From: an uncultured Gammaproteobacteria bacterium
Lineage (GTDB): Bacteria; Patescibacteriota; Patescibacteriia; UBA9934
Direction: 5' to 3'
DNA: 64,000 bases
NCBI GenBank assembly: GCA_964452565.1
Contig: CAYVLY010000001.1
Span: forward strand, 579,053 to 643,052
Shown: one piece after another, positions 1 to 64,000 of the stretch
Layout of the letters: every line of letters starts with the position of its first letter
Position numbering within the stretch: the stretch's first letter is position 1
Notes under the pieces: generated by a model
The model's database searches: none
What the model was told of the DNA's origin: nothing
The model's input: only the letters and a program-made list of their open reading frames with translations
Position numbers and translations under genes: made by a program

Positions 1-1584
1 AAAGTTCCCAAGCGAGTACACAACTAGCACATCGTCGATAATCTCAATCCCTTGCGCTACATGTGGGTGCCCGCCAATGATCAAATCTGCACCAGCATCG
101 ATCATAAGCTGTGCTAATTCACGCTGCGACCAGCTTGGAGCAACAATATACTCAGATCCCCAATGCGGGAACACAATCACAAATCTACCCTCTTCGTCAG
201 CTGCCTGAATCTGGGTCTCCAACTCTGCTGTATCAGGTTGGAACTGGTGATAGCCAATATACGTAAGTTCAATGCCATTGATCGTCTCGTCATATCGAGG
301 TACAGGCGTTGCATATGATCCAAACCATGGAATACCCATCTCATCCAATCGATCTTTTGTCTCTTGAAGGCCAGCAGATCCAACGTCACTGGCATGATTG
401 TTAGCCAAACTTACTACATCGATATACTCATTCATAACCTCAACCGATTCTGGAGCAAAAACAAACCTAAATGGCGGATAAACTGTATAAGTGCTTGCAA
501 GCTCATTAACTGTTCCTTCAAGATTCCCGATCGTGGTATGAACTCCTGACAGGAATCGCTCCATATTCAACCATGGATAATCCTGCCCTTCTGATTCAAG
601 CAATGTTCGGACTCCACGATCAAGCATTATATCTCCCACAACATGCAGAGCCGCAAAGGTATCAGCGTCTGACCCTCCTTCTGTAAAGTAGCCTAAGATA
701 TGACTGGTATTCTCTTCATAATCCTCTGACAAGCCCATGTCAAGCGAGTTACCATGATGCACCAAATTCCAAATTTGGTCTTCACGTTCTGCGTTCACCT
801 GCAACAGGACATCTAAACCAACATTCGAATCAATCTCAGGCTCTGCACCCTCCATTAATCCGGACTCAATTAAACGCAGTGTGACCTCATCGTGAAACTC
901 TGATGCGGTCTGCGGCAAAAAGTGCGACATGTCGATACTTGCGATCACCACAGCATCCTTAGCATGATCGTCAATCGCCTCAACAAGCGCCCAGAGATCT
1001 TCATCACTTAAAGACTCATGCAAAACAATGGGAACGATCTGAGCGCCTGGAAATGATCTCGCAACAAACGGCATTAACGTACTAATACCATGCTCATACT
1101 CGAAAGTATCATCTTCAATCGAAAGTATCTCAACATCTTCTACCAAGTCTCCGATCAAACTCTGATTAGATCGAACCTCGCCATAATACGTCTCCCAACT
1201 TCCCAACGTAGTCTGTATTGGCGACATGCCCAAATCAAAATGGTTTGGGCTCAAAAGTATAACTGTATCAGCACGATCATCCGAGATTGTTTCAAATACT
1301 TTTGCAATCTCATCAGCTACAACTAAATGATGTGCAACGATCGCAGACTGAGACTTAACTTGATCAACACCCTCTGCCTTCTCATATGCCCAATCATAGA
1401 GCGACTGCGTGTACCTGTTAGTTGAAAATATAGTTGCCTCAGCTGAATCTTCTCGAAAAGCAGCCATTGAAAAGTTTCGACTGGTATCTTCAGCACCCAA
1501 AAACCAACCAACAATAAACATCGCCTCGATGAAGATCAGGGCTACAGCTATAACCGCTATTGCTTTGAGTGACTTTGATCTCAT
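1..1584 (-). CDS. Membrane-anchored fusion protein (partial; C-terminus runs off the window start): N-terminal signal/TM, MEMO1-like domain, then CapA/PGA_cap-like metallophosphatase domain
   Basis: Minus frame 0 appears open from the ATG at 1584 to position 1; it is absent from the ORF track presumably because there is no in-window stop. Hand translation gives an N-terminus MRSKSLKAIAVIAVALIFIEAMFIVGWF, a MEMO-like segment TLMPFVARSFPGAQIVPIVLHESLSDEDLWALVEAIDDHA...SIDMSHF, and a CapA hallmark ELAQLMIDAGADLIIGGHPHVAQGIEIIDDVLVVYSLGNF at 1-120. Confidence 0.6.
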   Translation of the reverse strand, partial: MRSKSLKAIAVIAVALIFIEAMFIVGWFLGAEDTSRNFSMAAFREDSAEATIFSTNRYTQSLYDWAYEKAEGVDQVKSQSAIVAHHLVVADEIAKVFETISDDRADTVILLSPNHFDLGMSPIQTTLGSWETYYGEVRSNQSLIGDLVEDVEILSIEDDTFEYEHGISTLMPFVARSFPGAQIVPIVLHESLSDEDLWALVEAIDDHAKDAVVIASIDMSHFLPQTASEFHDEVTLRLIESGLMEGAEPEIDSNVGLDVLLQVNAEREDQIWNLVHHGNSLDMGLSEDYEENTSHILGYFTEGGSDADTFAALHVVGDIMLDRGVRTLLESEGQDYPWLNMERFLSGVHTTIGNLEGTVNELASTYTVYPPFRFVFAPESVEVMNEYIDVVSLANNHASDVGSAGLQETKDRLDEMGIPWFGSYATPVPRYDETINGIELTYIGYHQFQPDTAELETQIQAADEEGRFVIVFPHWGSEYIVAPSWSQRELAQLMIDAGADLIIGGHPHVAQGIEIIDDVLVVYSLGNF

Positions 1585-1669
1585 ATCTGCATTATACAGC
1601 AATTAAAAAGAACCGGCTCGCACCGGTTCTTTATCTGTCTGGGTTCTGTAGTCTGTGTTCTGAGTTCTG

Positions 1670-2155
1670 TTATTCAACGTAAGTCGATACTGTGTAGAAG
1701 CTACAGTTAAGTCCGTCGTCAAAACAGACATCAAATGCACCCTTCCAGTTTCCACTCTCAAGCGCTACAGCATGGAAAGTAACTGTTGTGCCACCTGCAG
1801 GTATATCTGCTAACAATGTGTGGGTATACGTTCCATCATCAAGCAAGTATGACTCTGAGAAATCCGGCGTAGATGATCCGATAGCCACACCCTCAAGGTA
1901 TGTCTCTCCGATATCAATACTATGCAAGAGTTGTGTTTCGCTAGAATCATGTGAGATAGTTGCCACAACGTCAAACTCTTCTCCTACAACCACTGATGTT
2001 GGCACATCAATAGTTGCCTCTGGGATTGAATCATAATCACCCCATGAGTAATCATAATCATAGTCATCCTCCCATTCATAATCATATGAACGCTCACAAC
2101 CTGCCCCCATTAGGACGAGTGCAAATACACTCATCAAAAGCAATGCTTTTTTCAT
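1670..2155 (-). CDS. Hypothetical lipoprotein (Asp/Tyr-rich N-terminal region)
   Basis: ORF 1670..2194 with an internal start MKKALLLMSVFALVLMGAGC (lipobox-like), followed by YDYEWEDDYDYDYSWGDYD. Confidence 0.5.
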   Translation of the reverse strand: MKKALLLMSVFALVLMGAGCERSYDYEWEDDYDYDYSWGDYDSIPEATIDVPTSVVVGEEFDVVATISHDSSETQLLHSIDIGETYLEGVAIGSSTPDFSESYLLDDGTYTHTLLADIPAGGTTVTFHAVALESGNWKGAFDVCFDDGLNCSFYTVSTYVE

Positions 2156-9704: not shown

Positions 9705-12700
9705 TTAGCGGTTGTTTTGTTGTGATTTTGTATCGATGTCTATCGCCTCTCCTTCGTCGAGAAGCTCTACATCCAAACACAACCCCTTAAGCTCACGAAT
9801 GAGCACATTGAATGATTCAGGAATATTAACCTTTCTAATTGGATCACCCTTGATGATTGCCTCATAAGCCTTTGAGCGGCCTGGGACATCGTCTGACTTA
9901 ATGGTCAAAATCTCTTGCAGGGTATGTGCTGCTCCATAAGCCTCAAGCGCCCAGACCTCCATCTCTCCAAATCGCTGTCCTCCAAACTGTGCTTTTCCTC
10001 CAAGAGGCTGTTGAGTAATTAATGAGTATGGGCCGATAGATCGCTGGTGCATCTTATCCTCAATCATGTGGTTCAGCTTCAGCATGTACATCACACCGAC
10101 GGTTACAGGATTATCAAACTCCTCTCCATTTCTGCCATCAAGCAATTTTCTTTGACCGCTTAGATGGTGCCCGGCGGTTTCAAGCTCCTTTCGAATCATG
10201 TCTTCTGGGACTCCAGCAAACACAGGGGACGCTACGTGATAATCAAGAGTGTCAGCCGCAAGTCCGAGGTGAACCTCTAGGATCTGACCAAGGTTCATAC
10301 GTGACACAACCCCGAGCGGAGTAAGAATCACATCAACTGGTCTACCCTCCTTTGTGAAAGGCATATCCTCTATAGGAACTACGCGTGATACAACGCCCTT
10401 GTTTCCATGTCGTCCTGCCATCTTGTCTCCAACCTGCATCTTTCGAAGGTCTGCAATAGTAACCTGAACTGACCTTACTACTCCTGCTGGCAAATTATCT
10501 CCATCCTCACGTGAGAAAATCTTTACGTCTACCACCTTTCCTTTATTTCCATGTTGCAGATACATTGATGAATCACGAACATCTCGTGCCTTTTCTCCAA
10601 AGATCGCTCGTAACAACTTTTCCTCGGCTGAAAGTTCTGTCTCACCCTTTGGCGTGATCTTTCCTACCAAAATATCTCCTGACTTTACCTCTGCACCTGT
10701 TCGGATGATTCCTTCGGAATCCAAATTCTTAAGCTTTTCCTCTGAGACGTTTGGGATATCAGATGTCACAACCTCAGGTCCAAGCTTAGTATCACGCACA
10801 TCAAGAGTGTGGTGCTCGAGGTGGAGTGTTGTGAAACGATCATCTTGAACAATCTTTTCAGAAAGAATGATTGCATCCTCGTAGTTGCATCCGTCCCAAC
10901 TCATGAAAGCAACCATCATGTTCTGACCAAGCGCCAACTCACCCTCATCAACAGAAGGACCGTCTGCGAGAACAGCTCCCTTTTTGAACTTTTCACCAAC
11001 CATTACAATTGGCCGCTGGTTGATTGAAGTTGAGTGGTTTGATCGTTTAAACTTATTCAAAGTGTATGTAACCTCTCCATCCTTTTTGTATTCAACTACG
11101 ATCTTTCCGCCATCTACATACTTAATTTCTCCATCTTCACGAGCAGTTAGAACGTGTCCTGAATCAATTGCAGCACGTCGCTCTCGCCCAGTTCCAATTC
11201 GTGGAGCCTCTGGTCTGATTGGCGGAACAGCCTGGCGTTGCATGTTAGATCCCATCAACGCTCGAGTTGCATCATCGTGCTCTAAGAAAGGAATTAATGA
11301 AGTTCCGATTGATACGATTTGTGCTGATGAAACATCCAAATAGTTTACTTCCTGCGCCTGAACCAATCGCGCCTCACCAAACTTTCGTGCCTCTACTCTG
11401 TCTGCGTCAATATATCCATCATCAGTAAGTGGGATTGTTGCGGGACATGTAACTGACTTTTCTTCTTTAAAGGCGTTAATGTATTCAATATCGTCCGTTA
11501 CCTTCATCTTTCCGTCCTCATTCACAACTTTTCTGTACGGAGTTTCGATAAAACCGTACTTGTTGATTCGAGCATAACTTGAAAGCTGACCAACAAGTCC
11601 AATATTCGGTCCCTCAGGAGTTTGTACTGGACAGATTCGTCCATAGTGAGTTGTATGCACATCACGAACTTCAAATCCTGCACGCTCACGTGACAATCCA
11701 CCTTGACCCAAGGCTGACAAACGACGCTTGTGCTCAAGCTCCGCCAGTGGATTGGTTTGATCCATGAACTGCGAAAGCTGTGATGACATGAAGAACTCTC
11801 TTGTTGCTCCAATTACTGGCCGCGCATTAATCAAACGACCTGGAGTAATAGACTCTATGTCCTGCGTACTCATTCTATCGCGGACAATCCGCTCCATTCG
11901 TGCAAGACCGATACGGAATCGTCCTTGAATTAGCTCTCCAACCGCACGCACACGTCGGTTTCCAAGGTGGTCAACATCATCTGGTTCTTCTTGGGTGATG
12001 TTTAATCGAATAATCTCGCGAATAATGTCTACTAGATCTTCTTTTCGTAAAATTCGGTTCTCCTCAATTGTTACCCCATCTTCTGGATTCTCTTTATGAA
12101 AACGTGTGTTGAACTTAAACCGTCCAACCGGGCCCAAATCATATCGATCAAAATTGAAGAACATTGAATGAATCAACTGCTTTGCATTCTCTGCAGTGGC
12201 CAGATCTCCTGGACGGATTCGTTTATACACCTCCTTAAGCCCCTCTTCCTCATTAGTAGAGATATCCTTTGCCAATGTGGTTTCAATGTACTTATTCAGT
12301 GGATGGGTATCAATATCCTTGAACAAATCAAGGATCTCTTCATCTGTAAAAAATCCAAATGCGCGTAAAAGTGCTGTTACCGCCACCTTACGCTTTCTAT
12401 CAATCTTTACCCAAATAACATTTTTAGCATCTGTCTCAAACTCCAGCCATGCTCCGCGATTTGGAATGATTTTTGCTCCATAGTATCGACGTCCACGTAT
12501 TGCCTCTGCAGTAAAGAACGCTCCAGCTGATCGAACCAACTGGGAAACAATCACTCGCTCAGCTCCATTAATGATGAATGTTCCTCTGTCTGTCATTACA
12601 GGGAGGTCACCAAGGAAAATCTCCTGTTCTTTGCTATCTTTTGTACGAAGGTTGGTCAATTTTGCCTTCACACGAAGTGGCGCTTCAAAGGTAATGTTCT

Positions 12701-20104: not shown

Positions 20105-20200
20105 AGAAACCTCCCCTGGCCCCTCCTTCGTAAGGAGGGGGATCACAATTTTTGACCCTCCCCCTTTCGAAGGGGGAGTTGGAGGGGGTATATAATACTT
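20105..20200. terminator. Two tandem GC hairpins in the rpsR-efp intergenic region (operon terminator / efp leader)
   Basis: cccctccttcgtaaggagggg and ctcccccttcgaaagggggag hairpins; a TATAAT-like box at ~20196. Confidence 0.45.
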
Positions 20201-58706: not shown

Positions 58707-59876
58707 TCAACGTACATGCCGCAAGCCTGGGAGGAAAATCACCAAGCATGCAATCAATATTACCACTGACAAAACCCCAAGAGCAGCAAATAATGGCAGC
58801 ACACCGACCAAAACGCCCACAAACAACATACCTAGGGACTTAACAAGCCCAACTGTAAAAGAAGTGAATGAAAGAAGTGTCGCACGGGCATCAGTATCAA
58901 CCCTTTGGTTGATATGGTTATCGACTATTACCTCAAGGGCTATAGAAACAAATGTCATGATCAATATTCCAATGATGATGACCTCGAATGACCCTGCAAA
59001 GCTTGACATGACAAAAAATATCGCAACCAGCAAAACTCCCAACTTGATTGCGCGCCGATCGCTTGCAAACCTTTCTATCTTATCGAGTGTTAATGGAGCA
59101 ACTGCACCAATGATACGTTTTCCTGCATAGACAAAACCAACACCCGATGCCAGAAGTCCAAGCTCCTCCATTCGGATTTGATCATATTCATAAAATACAT
59201 ATGTGGAGGCCAGAACAGACGCGAATGAAATCACAATCCAAAAGATATCTTTATTCTTCTTCATCAATTCAATCGCTTCTTTGATGTGGTCGCCTACCAT
59301 TGCAATTTCAAATTTTCCTACTCTTCCCTTGCGGGTCTTTCCAAACATCGAAATAATAACCGCGGCCAATCCAAACTGTACGACCCCCGCAATGAATGGA
59401 ATTGAGTAATGAACCATGTACAATACCCCTGCTACTGCCATGAAAACAATACCAACACCGTGTGCAACAGATCGTGAGCGCCCTAAGAGTTTTTTATACT
59501 CTCGCACACGTCCCAGTACTTGTAGACGTTCATAAAATATGGCGTGATTTGTTCCGGTTAAGAGTGTGCCCGAACCCCAATACAATAAACTACCTGCCAA
59601 TATCCAGTAAAAATCGCCGCCAAGGTAGAGCGCCATGGACGCGCCCTGCCCTATCATTGAAATGATAAGTGCACGTTTGTGACCCATTGTATCTGCTACT
59701 GCACCGCTTGGAATTTCCATGATCAACCCCAAAATTGAGGTCGCTATTACAATAAAAGCAATCTCTTGCAACGTTACTCCAGAATCTATCATGTAAAGCG
59801 CTATAACCGGCAATGCTAGACGCTTCGTTAGCGCTGAAAAAACATAAAACTTTTTTACATCATCAAACCATTTCAT
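58707..59876 (-). CDS. MFS transporter
   Basis: About 12 hydrophobic helices and MFS-like loop motifs. Confidence 0.7.
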   Translation of the reverse strand: MKWFDDVKKFYVFSALTKRLALPVIALYMIDSGVTLQEIAFIVIATSILGLIMEIPSGAVADTMGHKRALIISMIGQGASMALYLGGDFYWILAGSLLYWGSGTLLTGTNHAIFYERLQVLGRVREYKKLLGRSRSVAHGVGIVFMAVAGVLYMVHYSIPFIAGVVQFGLAAVIISMFGKTRKGRVGKFEIAMVGDHIKEAIELMKKNKDIFWIVISFASVLASTYVFYEYDQIRMEELGLLASGVGFVYAGKRIIGAVAPLTLDKIERFASDRRAIKLGVLLVAIFFVMSSFAGSFEVIIIGILIMTFVSIALEVIVDNHINQRVDTDARATLLSFTSFTVGLVKSLGMLFVGVLVGVLPLFAALGVLSVVILIACLVIFLPGLRHVR

Positions 59877-59886
59877 ATACTCAATG

Positions 59887-59969
59887 TGTCATTCCCGCGA
59901 AAGCGGGAATCCATCACCTATATCGAACTCGATAATCGATGGACCCCCGATCGGGGTCGGGAGTGACAA
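59887..59969. repeat. Structured ~83-bp multi-hairpin repeat element, copy 1
   Basis: tgtcattccc[gcgaaagc]gggaatccatcacc[tatcgaactcgata]atcgatggaccc[ccgatcgggg]tcgggagtgacaa, paralogous to 62282-62363. Confidence 0.6.
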
Positions 59970-59970
59970 G

Positions 59971-60891
59971 TTATTTCTTTGAATGATACCTCTTATGAAT
60001 CTTCTTGAGCTGTTTATCAGTCACATGTGTGTAGATCTGCGTTGTTGTAATCGACTCATGCCCGAGCATAGCCTGCACTGATCGAATATCTGCTCCGTTT
60101 CGAAGTAAATCAGTTGCGAACGTGTGTCTAAGGGTGTGTGGGGTGATCTTTTTTGTGATTCCTGCTGCAGTTGCATAACGCTCAACTGCCCTTTGAATCG
60201 ATCGAGGTGATATTGGCAGTGAATCTCTTCGATGTTTAGCTCGGTCATGACTCACAAACAAGTATGGCGAAGTATCTTTGCGTGCATCAAGGTAATTCTT
60301 GATTGCATCACGCGCATCATCTGATAAAAACACAACTCGATGCTTACTGCCCTTTCCTTTTACACTAAACTCACCGCGCCGAAGGTTAACTTCTTTGATC
60401 TGGAGTTGTGATAATTCAGATACTCGCAATCCGGTCGAGAACAACATCTCGAGAATTGCTCTATCGCGCTTTCCGATTAGCCCGCCAGTGTCCTTGGTGG
60501 CGTTTAGCATTCTTCGAAGCTCGTCTTCTTCAAGAAATTCGATCTTGCGAGTGCCGGTTTTGGCAAGTTCGATTTTGTCAGGAGACAAAGTCTTCACGTC
60601 GCGTTTTGATAAGTACTTTAGAAACGCTCGCAGTGCGATCAAATGATAATTCTGCGTTGACTTCTTTAATGTCACATCGTCACGACCTTCAACAGACCGA
60701 TTCAAATACAACCGATACCTTCGAATCATCTCTTGAGTGATCTTGTTTGGGTAGGGGTACTTAGCCCAATCTGCAAATCGCTGTAGATAAAAGTCATAAT
60801 TTCGAACTGTGCGATCAGATCGCCCTCGCTCAATCTCTAAATATTCCAAAAACTGTTGGATATATTTTTGCAATGCGCTTTTCTTTGCCAT
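59971..60891 (-). CDS. Tyrosine site-specific recombinase XerC/XerD
   Basis: N-terminal SAM-like domain and a C-terminal catalytic region ...HTLRHTFATDLLRNGADIRSVQAMLGHESITTTQIYTHV. Confidence 0.85.
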   Translation of the reverse strand: MAKKSALQKYIQQFLEYLEIERGRSDRTVRNYDFYLQRFADWAKYPYPNKITQEMIRRYRLYLNRSVEGRDDVTLKKSTQNYHLIALRAFLKYLSKRDVKTLSPDKIELAKTGTRKIEFLEEDELRRMLNATKDTGGLIGKRDRAILEMLFSTGLRVSELSQLQIKEVNLRRGEFSVKGKGSKHRVVFLSDDARDAIKNYLDARKDTSPYLFVSHDRAKHRRDSLPISPRSIQRAVERYATAAGITKKITPHTLRHTFATDLLRNGADIRSVQAMLGHESITTTQIYTHVTDKQLKKIHKRYHSKK

Positions 60892-60897
60892 ATGCCA

Positions 60898-61056
60898 GGG
60901 AGCTCTGTAAAAACAGGCTCTATAATAAAGTTAAGTATTTTCTTCTCAATTCCTTGAAGGGCGAGGAGGTGATGCGGCTGCATCATTGACGAGCTCTGAA
61001 TGGATTTGAGGGGAAAATAATCACTTTAGTGTGGGTGTGTTTTTGCAGAGCTCCCT
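60898..61056. repeat. ~19-bp imperfect inverted repeat (gggagctctgtaaaaacagg / tgtgtttttgcagagctccc) enclosing ~120 bp, starting 7 nt upstream of the xerC start
   Basis: 17 of 20 positions complementary. Confidence 0.45.
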
Positions 61057-61375
61057 AGTATTATACGACACAAAATATATTTAGGCACTTTTCTATGGTA
61101 ATATAAATATGAGGTGGGAGGTTCCTAACCGTTTTACCACCATGATGGCCCGACTCTTTGGACCGGGACCTACATCTACATCGCCGACAGTTGGGTCCCC
61201 ACAGGGAAACCAACTACCCCGTGCCGGGGCTGGAGCTCATACTCTAGCCCCGGCCACTGCTTTCTTGACACTTTCTGATAATCCGGCTAGTATAAGCACA
61301 TAATTCATTGCTGTTGGCCGCGGTTTGACGATTAAGCAGACGTCTTACTTCGACCTTCGGGTGTAATATAGAAAT

Positions 61376-61651
61376 ATGCTTAATAAGAAGAAAAAGCAGA
61401 GGATCATTGATAAGTTCAAAACTCACGATAAAGATACTGGCTCACCCCAGGTGCAGATCGCTATCCTTACCGAAGAGGTAAAAGAACTTACAAAGCACTT
61501 ACGAACCCACAAAAAGGACTTTAGTTCTCGACGGGGGTTGGTAAAAAAAGTTACTGAGCGACGACGCCTAATGCTATACCTCCGACGAGAGGACGAGAAG
61601 GGCTACACAGATTTGATTGCAGCGCTCAAGATCCGACCACTTAGTGAATAA
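61376..61651 (+). CDS. rpsO: 30S ribosomal protein S15
   Basis: MLNKKKKQRIIDKFKTHDKDTGSPQVQIAILTEEVKELTKHLRTHKKDFSSRRGL. Confidence 0.9.
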   Translation: MLNKKKKQRIIDKFKTHDKDTGSPQVQIAILTEEVKELTKHLRTHKKDFSSRRGLVKKVTERRRLMLYLRREDEKGYTDLIAALKIRPLSE

Positions 61652-61657
61652 TTTAAT

Positions 61658-61700
61658 CAAGCCCGGTTCGATTTTATCGGCCGGGCTTGAATCTTTTTTA
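61658..61700 (+). terminator. Rho-independent terminator after rpsO
   Basis: caagcccgg-14nt-ccgggcttg, then tcttttttaaaaa. Confidence 0.6.
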
Positions 61701-61719
61701 AAAACATAATTCTTTTCAT

Positions 61720-62274
61720 ATGCTACAGACCCCAAACCGCCGCGTTGGCGTTTTCATTGACGTGCAAAACATGTACTACAGTGCACGCAATCTATTTAAT
61801 CGAAAGGTAAACTTTCCCAAGATCGTTGAAGAAACCATGGGAGATGGTCAACTAGTCAGAGCACTTGCCTATGCGGTCACAACAGAGGCGGGAGACGAGA
61901 GTCCATTTCTAGAAGCTCTAGAAAAAAATAACATCGAAGTTATTGCAAAGGATCTAATCGAATATGAATCCGGCCACAAAAAGGCAAACTGGGATGTTGG
62001 TATGGCAATTGATGTTGTTCGGATGATCGATATGCTTGATGTTGTAGTAATGGTCTCAGGTGATGGCGACTTTGCCCCGCTTGCAGACTATGTTCGCGGA
62101 AAGGGACGGCTCTTCCACGTTGCATCATTCCGAGAGTCCACATCATCTGAACTTCTCGAGGTGGTTGATATGTACACAAACCTATCAGACCAACCAGAAG
62201 TATTCCTCATGCCCGAGGTTACAAAGAGAAAGGCCCCGGCACGAAAACGAAAAGCACCGGCGAAGAAAAAGTAA
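61720..62274 (+). CDS. NYN-domain (LabA-like, PIN-fold) protein with basic C-terminal tail
   Basis: RVGVFIDVQNMYY...NWDVGMAIDVVRM...DVVVMVSGDGDFAPL; C-terminus KRKAPARKRKAPAKKK. Confidence 0.75.
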   Translation: MLQTPNRRVGVFIDVQNMYYSARNLFNRKVNFPKIVEETMGDGQLVRALAYAVTTEAGDESPFLEALEKNNIEVIAKDLIEYESGHKKANWDVGMAIDVVRMIDMLDVVVMVSGDGDFAPLADYVRGKGRLFHVASFRESTSSELLEVVDMYTNLSDQPEVFLMPEVTKRKAPARKRKAPAKKK

Positions 62275-62281
62275 AAAAACT

Positions 62282-62363
62282 TGTCATTCCTGCGAAGGCA
62301 GGAATCCATCGCTTATCGAGTTTCGATAGATGATGGATCCCGGCTCGTAGGCCGGGATGACAA
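62282..62363. repeat. Structured ~82-bp multi-hairpin repeat element, copy 2
   Basis: tgtcattcc[tgcgaaggca]ggaatccatcgct[tatcgagtttcgata]gatgatggatcc[cggctcgtaggccg]ggatgacaa. Confidence 0.6.
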
Positions 62364-62435
62364 AACCACCCGTTCTCGAACGGGTAGAGTCGATCAAGTT
62401 GCTCGATTCTAATCGTTCGATAACTAATTTAACGC

Positions 62436-62496
62436 TGTCGGTTTGAGACCATAAGGTCATCAAGGATCAACCTTGAAACCTTGAGCTTCAAACCGA
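62436..62496 (+). promoter_or_regulatory. Long-range stem (gtcggtttga/tcaaaccgac) with nested hairpins in the pnp 5' leader
   Basis: 10-bp perfect complementary arms 62436-62445 / 62487-62496 with internal gacc-ataa-ggtc and caagg...ccttg hairpins. Confidence 0.35.
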
Positions 62497-62645
62497 CGCG
62501 ATAACATCGGACTTTCCCAGTCGGCGCATCGCGGTGTCAGAATCTGTGTTTTACCTTCGCCGTACGTGACCAGTACGCCTCAGGCAAAGCCTTGATTCTT
62601 CCTTGCGCTGCCTCCAACTGGAAAAGCCGATCACAACAAAGCATA

Positions 62646-64000
62646 TGGAACAGAAAACGTTCTCCTGCGAGATTGGTGGCAAAGAGCTCACAATCAAAAC
62701 AGGAAAGTTTGCGCAGTCAGCAAATGCTAGCTGCCTTGTTCAGCTTGGTGAGACAATCGTGCTCGCTACTGCTGTTATGTCCAAGACCAAACGTGAAGGA
62801 CTCCCATTCTTCCCACTCATGGTCGACTATGAAGAAAAGCTTTACGCAGCTGGTCGGATCAAAGGATCTCGATTCATCAAGCGTGAAGGTCGTCCTACTG
62901 ATGATGCCGTACTTGTTGGTCGATTCATTGACCGAGCTATACGCCCTTTGTTTGATGACCGAATCCGAAATGACATTCAAGTTATCATTACGGCCCTCTC
63001 ATTTGATGGAGAGAATGATCCGGATATATTGGGGTTGATTGGTGCATCATGCGCTCTTCACATAAGTGACATTCCTTGGAATGGACCAATAGGCGCTCTT
63101 CGCGTATCCCAAAAAGAAGGTGAGTGGCTACTAAACCCAACCTATGCCGAACGCGAGGAAACTGACTTTGACCTAGACATTGCAGGTACTGCAGAAAAAG
63201 TCATAATGATTGAGGCTCGTGCAAATGAAACCAGCGAAGACATCATGCAAGAAGCGTTTGAGCATGCTATGGGCAATGTGCAACCAATCATCGACCTTAT
63301 TGAAAAGGTTCGATCTGAGGCTGGAAAAGAAAAGCTTACCTTCGAAGCCCTAAATACAGAAAAAGAACTTGAGGCTTTGGAAAAACGTGCACCATTGGCA
63401 CAAAAGGCAAAAGATTTCATGCGCCCAATCTTTGAAGAAAAGATCTTAAGTGCATCACTCACGAAAAAAACATTAATCAACGAAGCAAAGAGAGAGTTGG
63501 CAGAAAAGCTAGAAGAATATCTAACTTCAGAGGGGCATGAATCTGACGAAATAGCTTTTGCAAAGGACCTAATCTATAACTTCACACAAGATGAGGCATC
63601 ACGAATCATCCTAGAACAAGGTAAACGAATTGACGGACGTAAGCTTACTGAGATTCGAGACCTAACGTCAGAGGTTGCTCTGTTGCCGCGTGTTCATGGA
63701 ACAGGACACTTCATGCGTGGAACAACTCAGGCACTTTCAATTTGCACATTAGGTGCTCCTGGAGATGAGCAGACGCTCGATGGAATGGAAATCACTGGAC
63801 AAAAACGCTACATGCACCACTATAACTTCCCTCCATACTCTGTTGGAGAAGCAAAACCGTTGCGAGGAGCAAGTCGGCGAGACATTGGACATGGTGCACT
63901 TGCTGAAAAGGCACTCGACCCAATGATCCCCTCAAAGGAAGACTTCCCATACACTATTCGTGTGGTGTCGGAGACACTTGATTCAAACGGATCAAGCTCG
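62646..64000 (+). CDS. pnp: Polyribonucleotide nucleotidyltransferase (PNPase), partial (continues beyond the window)
   Basis: MEQKTFSCEIGGKELTIKTGKFAQSANASCLVQLGETIVLATAV... RNase PH domains; classic rpsO...pnp neighbourhood. Confidence 0.9.

Follow-up and report, generated by a model that had tools for sequence, protein, structure and literature searches.

The CGTC repetitive extragenic palindromic (REP) sequences were surveyed by Di Nocera et al. (2013, BMC Genomics 14:522, PMC3733652), and in the sections of that survey drawn on here they are described as having 8-9-bp stems with complementary A/T bases at the first two positions. The CGTC-1 type carries 4-nt loops and a CCA tail, with TGTC and CCTC as accepted variants of the head. 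According to the same sections, CGTC REPs are mostly arranged as head-outside (HH) dimers, with the tags outside and spacers of 20-100 bp whose ends are often complementary. They sit near the 3' end of the upstream open reading frame (ORF), as CGTC-1 does in S. wittichii, and REPs in this position are regarded as transcribed; repeats within genes are also described, and the CGTC-1 repeats of Neisseria are equated with dRS3. Here we report two ~83-bp repeats with this architecture in a 64-kb stretch of contig CAYVLY010000001.1 (hereafter the window) from a genome of the Patescibacteria, or Candidate Phyla Radiation (CPR). We conclude that each copy is probably an HH dimer of inverted CGTC-type REP units, that is, a REPIN-like, non-autonomous mobile palindromic element inserted just past a stop codon.

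The repeats share with the published CGTC-1 units (PMC3733652, as excerpted here) the (C/T)GTC head, the 8-bp stem starting with A-T and T-A pairs, the CCA tail and, in the left units, the 4-nt loop. They also share the HH pairing around a complementary-ended 20-100-bp spacer, including the occurrence of heterodimers, and the intergenic position at the 3' end of the upstream ORF with occasional intragenic units and no adjoining transposase gene. The hosts named in those sections are Proteobacteria, Thermotogae, Planctomycetes and a few others, with CPR not among them, whereas the present host belongs to the Patescibacteria/CPR. An earlier note on this DNA had called the element novel; since unit architecture, dimer arrangement and position are those of the published CGTC-1 REP, and the dimer occurs in many phyla, that description does not hold. 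The repeat class is already described and the host phylum is the new setting, for which we found no prior report of a REP, REPIN or REP-associated tyrosine transposase (RAYT) in the literature searched. The features that are new are local: right-unit loops of 6 nt (copy 2 and the dimers of the related loci L144 and L152) or 5 nt (L146), a subfamily with a nested 16-nt palindrome in the left loop, and a second, C-rich dimer family in shared slots. A further difference from CGTC-1 is the very low local copy number, two in 64 kb.

Other described repeats resemble these elements in part. The dRS3/NIME and REPIN-RAYT system of Neisseria shares the ATTCCC-N8-GGGAAT core with GTC before it and CC after it, is arranged in inverted pairs and is treated as non-autonomous, but its loop is GCAG/CCTG rather than GAAR. 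Bertels and Rainey (bioRxiv 10.1101/2021.07.10.451892) link its REPIN, with master 21-mer ATTCCCGCGCAGGCGGGAATC, to a Group 2 RAYT and describe REPIN decay in cases of a frameshift in the RAYT gene. Neisseria carries hundreds of these repeats, often in clusters, and the associated RAYT, in contrast to the few, diverged copies seen here, where no RAYT was seen in the DNA read. The GTAG-type REPs and bacterial interspersed mosaic elements of E. coli and the REPINs of Pseudomonas fluorescens are likewise short GC-rich palindromes with an unpaired tetranucleotide tag and inverted doublets that fold into larger hairpins; they lie extragenically past stop codons, and mRNA-stabilising roles have been proposed for them. 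The GTAG-type REPs differ in their tag (GTAG rather than CGTC), in an unrelated stem and in the presence of REPtrons, in which RAYT genes are flanked by their REPs. Classical miniature inverted-repeat transposable elements, such as Correia elements and RPE-1, are similar in being small, non-coding and intergenic, with terminal inverted repeats and presence/absence polymorphism. Unlike them, the elements here have terminal repeats that are themselves hairpins; no target-site duplication was found by eye on nine Patescibacteria flanks, and no parent insertion sequence (IS) with matching ends was found in any fetched locus.

Results

Anatomy of the two copies

Copies 1 and 2 occur in direct orientation at the coordinates given in the earlier note, and they align from end to end with 81% column identity; their flanks are not alignable in the same pairwise comparison. 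The left unit has the layout TGTC-ATTCCyGC-GAAr-GCrGGAAT-CCA in both. An unpaired terminal TGTC head is present on all four units, and a clean 8-bp stem beginning with two A/T pairs on three of them (both left units and the right unit of copy 2, ATCCCGGC/GCCGGGAT); the stem of the right unit of copy 1 (ACTCCCGAC...) is degenerate. Left-unit loops are 4 nt long (GAAA and GAAG), and the right loop is 6 nt in copy 2 and ambiguous in copy 1, compared with mostly 4 nt (CTTC or TTTC) in proteobacterial relatives. CCA follows both left stems and TGG precedes both right stems. Copy 2 is a heterodimer, because the stem of its right unit is unlike that of its left unit.

In both copies the tags lie outside, and the 25-26-nt spacers have complementary ends and an inner hairpin, TATCGA-N2-3-TCGATA. 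The heads of the two units pair with one another (TGTCA/TGACA) to form a closing stem, and the unit tails pair together with two or three spacer bases as CCATC/GATGG. Closing stem, two unit hairpins and spacer hairpin together make up a four-way junction, bounded by imperfect terminal inverted repeats of ~28 nt. The earlier note had quoted the first hairpin (CCCGC-GAAA-GCGGG against CCTGC-GAAG-GCAGG), the second (TATCGA-AC/GTT-TCGATA) and the mutual complementarity of the ends correctly. Its third hairpin is also present, but for copy 1 the reading CCCGA-TCGGGG-TCGGG, in the register of the family, is preferable to the proposed CCCCG-AT-CGGGG, whose loop would have 2 nt. Its proposal of a REP/MITE-like palindromic DNA element is supported.

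Predicted folds agree with this anatomy. Copy 2 folds into the closing stem and three hairpins, with zero unpaired junction bases and one shape under both RNA parameters (z -7.1) and DNA parameters (z -6.2). Copy 1 takes the same form under DNA parameters (z -3.9), and under RNA parameters its minimum-energy fold is an arm-to-arm hairpin in which the left arm pairs with the degenerate right arm (z -4.7), because the right hairpin is eroded. In this fold the two inverted REPs and the spacer form one hairpin, as in a REPIN. RNA fold energies of the copies range from -38 to -46 kcal/mol, with z from -4.7 to -7.1.

The DNA read comprised the 64 kb of the window, part of a 709,517-bp source contig, plus ~8 kb of flank, and it holds the two dimers (four units) and no further units. 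A degenerate 29-nt pattern of the left end matched exactly twice in the window, and 0 of 100 shuffles had any match. An nhmmer unit profile, built mostly from right units, recovered the right units, that of copy 1 only weakly (59967-59939); neither the pattern nor the profile found a third copy in the window. Both copies are identical in independent Logan assemblies of two sequencing runs and are therefore not assembly artefacts.

Relatives in many phyla and covariation of the stems

The earlier note had proposed a search for further copies. The full-dimer pattern matched at least 120 stretches in a scan of one genome per GTDB species. The matches listed are mostly from Sphingomonadales, with others from beta- and gamma-Proteobacteria, Rickettsiales, Pirellulales, Bacteroidota, Acidobacteriota, Kiritimatiellia, Gemmatimonadaceae and Sulfurovum. 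The left hairpin alone was found in 19 stretches on 15 IMG/VR contigs of widely varying GC content, some of them with the full dimer, and a pattern with the Patescibacteria-type spacer found 8 stretches in metagenomes, three of low GC, with L152 among the matches. Genomes of 38-70% GC from many phyla contain the CGTC unit, even within ORFs, and the 27-nt unit is nearly exactly common to Proteobacteria and other phyla.

A list of 130 elements, including the two of the window and four from IMG/VR contigs, gave the consensus CGTC-ATTCCsGC-GAAr-GCsGGAAT-CCAT...ATGG-AyCCCsGC-yTTC-GCsGGGrT-GACG. Pair types were counted on the 124 distinct elements from genome-scan loci. At positions left free in the search pattern, four Watson-Crick pair types were seen; the sixth pair of the left stem, one such position, was C-G in 77 elements, G-C in 33, A-T in 7, T-A in 6 and T·G in 1. 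The right stem has two variable pairs, nearly all cells of which are Watson-Crick. Before GTC, 101 of these relatives have C and 16 have T, and the base outside GTC covaries with that outside GAC (C...G or T...A), which lengthens the closing stem.

Covariation was measured on 70 distinct dimers with the spacer removed. In these, 98.6% of stem cells are paired, compared with 30-47% in slid-register controls, and 106 cells show double-sided changes; shuffling gave 30.5+-3.9, and in 500 rounds 106 was never reached. Compensatory change that keeps the pairing, first noticed on two copies, is far more strongly supported by the wider family. Departures of the G:T type (~6) and the A:C type (~5) are both rare and show no asymmetry, although they are too few for a strong test; this gives no sign of selection on one transcribed strand. 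Among the five Patescibacteria dimers (the two copies and those of L144, L146 and L152), 91.7% of cells pair and four pairs have a double-sided change, a statistically weak result, since n=5 and the structure was derived from one of the five.

Occupied and empty orthologous sites

The nearest named homologues of the NYN protein upstream of copy 2 are from Candidatus Uhrbacteria/Patescibacteria, and syntenic contigs were fetched for NYN homologues of 85-95% protein identity (L161, 95%; L146/147, 92%; L144/145, 91%; L149-151, 89%; L163, 86%; L162, 85%). Flanking genes are 65-82% identical in DNA to these relatives, and the gene order xerC-rpsO-NYN-pnp is conserved in relatives without the element. 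The NYN-pnp site has no element in L146/147, L149-151, L162 and L163; in such empty sites the first hairpin of the pnp leader follows the NYN stop codon by ~5-20 nt (~5 nt in L162 and L163). In L144/145 the site holds another palindromic dimer, of C-rich sequence, and in L161 it holds a variant CGTC unit, TGTC-ATCCCTGC-GAAG-GCAGGGAT-CCA, at 848-900, 23 nt past the NYN stop. The contig of L161, the closest relative, breaks off inside this variant unit. That the assembly breaks at a repeat is a hint of multiple copies of the unit in the L161 genome.

Similarly, the xerC/MFS junction is without element in L146 and L162, where the xerC stop and the start codon of the major facilitator superfamily (MFS) gene are 1 nt apart and the flanks align cleanly around a ~93-nt insert of the window. 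The xerC 3' site holds a longer variant of the CGTC dimer in L144/145 and a C-rich element in L149-151. Copy 1 is 84.5% identical to the L146 copy, which lies at a non-orthologous locus downstream of an Exo_endo_phos gene, whereas identity in the flanking genes is 65-79%. Comparison of these sites, made with relatives ~77-82% identical in DNA, indicates that related Patescibacteria genomes gain or lose the element at intergenic sites.

The dimers are placed just downstream of stop codons, as had been noted for the window. Copy 1 ends 1-2 nt from the stop codon of the xerC-like gene (59971-59973, minus strand), and its start is separated by 10 nt from the start codon of the MFS gene (59874-59876, minus strand); copy 2 begins 7 nt past the NYN stop codon. 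The L144, L146 and L152 copies are also intergenic, 5-9 nt from stop codons, so that each of the five Patescibacteria dimers has a stop codon 1-9 nt upstream of it. Two of the five (copy 1 and L152) lie between cistrons that run in the same direction, and the L144 copy, like copy 1, adjoins a xerC-like gene.

Nested-palindrome variant and unusual units

In some copies the GAAR loop of the left unit contains a nested 16-nt palindrome (ACCCGTCnGACGGGT / ACCCGTCnGACGGGTC), flanked on either side by a duplicate of the loop bases GAA(G). The variant is confined to copies of the element, and these lie at three non-orthologous loci, one in L144/145 (which are two assemblies of it), one in L146 and one in L152; this shows that the whole dimer was propagated as a unit. 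The nested palindrome resembles a secondary insertion with a 3-4-nt duplication, and its stem is similar to the hairpin that opens the pnp leader (ACCCGTTCTCGAACGGGT, window 62369-62386).

Some units occur in other settings. On a low-GC metagenome contig, a REP unit lies within an ORF for a 438-aa membrane protein (L152, ~1327-1374, minus strand; ...SFLRKQESI...), and REP units lie twice in a phage portal-like ORF of an IMG/VR contig (L011, 3124-5281; ...DSGLRRNDG...). On the low-GC metagenome contigs L159 (3548-3600) and L153 (~150-200) a lone left unit is followed by tandem 7-mers, TCGATGT/TCGATGC, in up to 7 copies, and this array replaces the spacer hairpin and the right unit.

Searches for known RNAs and terminators

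Rfam at its gathering score returned three tRNAs only from the whole window, and at E<=5 the region 59500-63000 gave one chance sub-threshold match, to CRISPR-DR, away from the elements. ARAGORN found nothing at either copy. A known RNA family or tRNA-like element was rejected for lack of any Rfam or ARAGORN match at the elements. A terminator scan called no terminator at the copies on either strand, and neither copy is followed by a run of T; an intrinsic terminator was rejected, these being GC-rich hairpins without a following U-tract.

Other features of the window

The coordinates of the dimers, their parts and the surrounding genes are collected in Table 1.

Table 1. Positions of the probable REP dimers, their parts, related palindromes and neighbouring genes (window coordinates unless a locus is named).
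Feature	Position	Strand	Description
Copy 1	59887-59969	+	TGTCATTCCCGCGAAAGCGGGAATCCATCACCTATATCGAACTCGATAATCGATGGACCCCCGATCGGGGTCGGGAGTGACAA; HH dimer, two inverted CGTC-type REP units and structured spacer
Copy 1, left REP unit	59887-59913	+	TGTC head, 8-bp stem ATTCCCGC/GCGGGAAT, loop GAAA, tail CCA
Copy 1, spacer	59914-59939	+	Inner hairpin TATCGA-AC-TCGATA; with unit tails, central arm closed by CCATC/GATGG
Copy 1, right REP unit	59940-59968	-	Inverted, degenerate: TGTC-ACTCCCGAC..GTCGGGGG-TCCA; head and tail retained, stem partly eroded
Copy 2	62282-62363	+	TGTCATTCCTGCGAAGGCAGGAATCCATCGCTTATCGAGTTTCGATAGATGATGGATCCCGGCTCGTAGGCCGGGATGACAA; HH dimer between NYN stop codon and structured pnp leader (~62366 on)
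Copy 2, left REP unit	62282-62308	+	TGTC-ATTCCTGC-GAAG-GCAGGAAT-CCA
Copy 2, spacer	62309-62333	+	Inner hairpin TATCGA-GTT-TCGATA
Copy 2, right REP unit	62334-62362	-	Inverted: TGTC-ATCCCGGC-CTACGA-GCCGGGAT-CCA; 6-nt loop
Nested palindrome	L144 8150-8172; L146 810-832; L152 2024-2046		
C-rich dimer	20108-20190 (one copy); L144 ~10560-10650; L149 ~1650-1760		
MFS transporter	58707-59876	-	
XerC-like tyrosine recombinase	59971-60891	-	
rpsO	61376-61651		
NYN/LabA-like protein	61720-62274		Stop codon 62272-62274
pnp	start ~62645		

The second palindromic-dimer family is unrelated to the first. It consists of C-rich hairpins, CCCCTCC-TTCGTAA-GGAGGGG and CTCCCCC-TTTCGAA-GGGGGAG, closed by ACCTCCCC/GGAGGGGGT, and in relatives it takes the places, after the NYN stop and after the xerC stop, where the window has the CGTC dimer.

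The leader of pnp, the polynucleotide phosphorylase (PNPase) gene, at 62366-62640 is highly structured, with three hairpins, a minimum free energy of -107 kcal/mol and z -7.5; one of them, a long hairpin of ~125 nt (62506-62632), lies just before the pnp start. This leader has no Rfam match and is kept in all syntenic relatives with or without the repeat. It recalls the E. coli pnp leader, whose autoregulatory hairpin is cleaved by RNase III.

Directly upstream of the xerC-like start codon, a 170-bp unit (60892-61061) has 24-nt inverted repeats at its ends, ATGCCAGGGAGCTCTGTAAAAACA / TGTTTTTGCAGAGCTCCCTAGTAT; it may be another small insertion, since 60894-61220 is not alignable with relatives. 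Between xerC and rpsO, the GC-richer segment 61109-61303 is called as a 64-aa ORF without Pfam match and may represent either a false ORF call or an RNA that went unrecognised. The segment 56900-57600, beside tRNA-His and tRNA-Arg, reaches 62.5% GC against ~45% around it and has overlapping long ORFs on both strands, including a called 177-aa gene without Pfam match; foreign DNA may have inserted here, next to the tRNA genes.

Discussion

The shared architecture, the relatives in many phyla and the empty orthologous sites lead us to regard the two copies as members of the CGTC REP class. Such an element would be non-autonomous and copied in trans by an enzyme that reads the folded single-stranded hairpin and its unpaired (C/T)GTC tag, the leading candidate being a REP-associated HUH tyrosine transposase, the RAYT. 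Either strand yields the identical four-way junction, because both arms are near-palindromic. If co-transcribed, the structure would be a very stable 3' or intercistronic block that could slow 3'-5' decay of the upstream message or reduce expression of the downstream gene (MFS, pnp). Position and modelled stability make an RNA-level role of this kind, as decay barrier or intercistronic attenuator, plausible; it would be dispensable, because relatives do without the element. The transcript-end or insulator role suggested in the earlier note is likewise conjectural, and the U-tract signature of a terminator is lacking.

Several observations weigh against this interpretation. CGTC repeats had no associated transposase in the sections of the survey considered here (PMC3733652). 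A phmmer search with E. coli RayT as the one query protein gave no RAYT-like ORF at E<=10 among ORFs of >=70 aa in the window and in the ~150 fetched loci L001-L159, a search that covered ~10% of the source contig. Clustering of ORFs of >=90 aa, an approach of limited sensitivity, revealed no recurrent transposase neighbour at ~130 loci with family members, the sole large cluster being short-chain dehydrogenases, a big paralogous family. Furthermore, a near-identical, high-copy population around a master sequence, typical of an active REPIN, was not seen in the 64 kb, where the two copies are 81% identical, and the nine flanks lack a target-site duplication. Finally, because the relatives are only ~77-82% identical in DNA, loss by deletion in some lineages could account for part of the empty sites.

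It is possible, though on balance unlikely, that the host retains the element mainly as a transcript-end RNA structure, a 3'-5' exonuclease barrier or an attenuator between xerC and MFS and between NYN and pnp, its mobile origin being secondary. The very stable folds, the location of all five Patescibacteria dimers <=10 nt from a stop codon and the transcription ascribed to REPs near ORF 3' ends (PMC3733652, in the part cited above) would suit such a role, as would the other palindromic dimer in matching slots of relatives, as if any hairpin were favoured there. The close relatives L146, L162 and L163 are nevertheless bare at such sites, neither copy has a trailing U-tract, orientation relative to the upstream gene is mixed, and G:T departures are not in excess over A:C. 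Covariation, from which the earlier note had concluded selection on structure, does not by itself imply a host function: relatives lack the element at orthologous sites.

We judge it very improbable that the element, folded as a four-way junction, represents an independent structured non-coding RNA or acts as a cis-regulatory RNA, for instance within the pnp leader. The cloverleaf-like junction with its compensatory changes invites this reading and copy 2 abuts the conserved, highly structured leader, but that leader is kept in relatives without the element, and the element is not kept at orthologous positions. Its occurrence in both orientations relative to neighbouring genes, the lack of Rfam and ARAGORN matches at the elements, and the presence of the unit in 38-70% GC genomes of many phyla, also inside ORFs, point the same way. 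A site for site-specific recombination, whose folded or cruciform DNA the adjacent XerC-like recombinase would recognise, or a landing pad for elements of the IS110/IS1111 type, is highly improbable. IS110/IS1111-family elements and Nf prophages preferentially target dRS3 in Neisseria and REPs in Pseudomonas, copy 1 and the L144 copy lie directly beside a xerC-like gene, and the perfect four-way junction is like a cruciform or Holliday junction. Yet no recombinase gene lies next to copy 2 or to the L146 and L152 copies, the xerC-rpsO-NYN-pnp gene order is kept where the element is absent, none of the copies seen carries an IS or prophage insertion, and recombinases are not enriched near the 120+ family members. 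That the window holds two copies only might suggest chance similarity or an assembly artefact, the probability of which we put as negligible; the shuffles without a match, the identical independent assemblies and the hundreds of relatives elsewhere rule it out.

A bolder extension of the REP-dimer interpretation is that the CGTC dimers form an active, self-propagating population in ultra-small Patescibacteria that have no RAYT of their own, the 27-nt unit having been acquired horizontally or being moved by another enzyme that recognises four-way junctions. We consider this improbable. The enzyme might then even come from the host cell, and if this were true, shared REP types could mark CPR-host pairs.

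CPR genomes are small and usually thought to be repeat-poor. Our results extend CGTC-type REP dimers to a Patescibacteria (CPR) genome, and by assigning a seemingly novel structured element to a known repeat class they prevent its misannotation as a new RNA. The insertion polymorphisms at the xerC-like gene and at the pnp leader provide concrete loci for studying the movement of CGTC REPs and their effects on operons.

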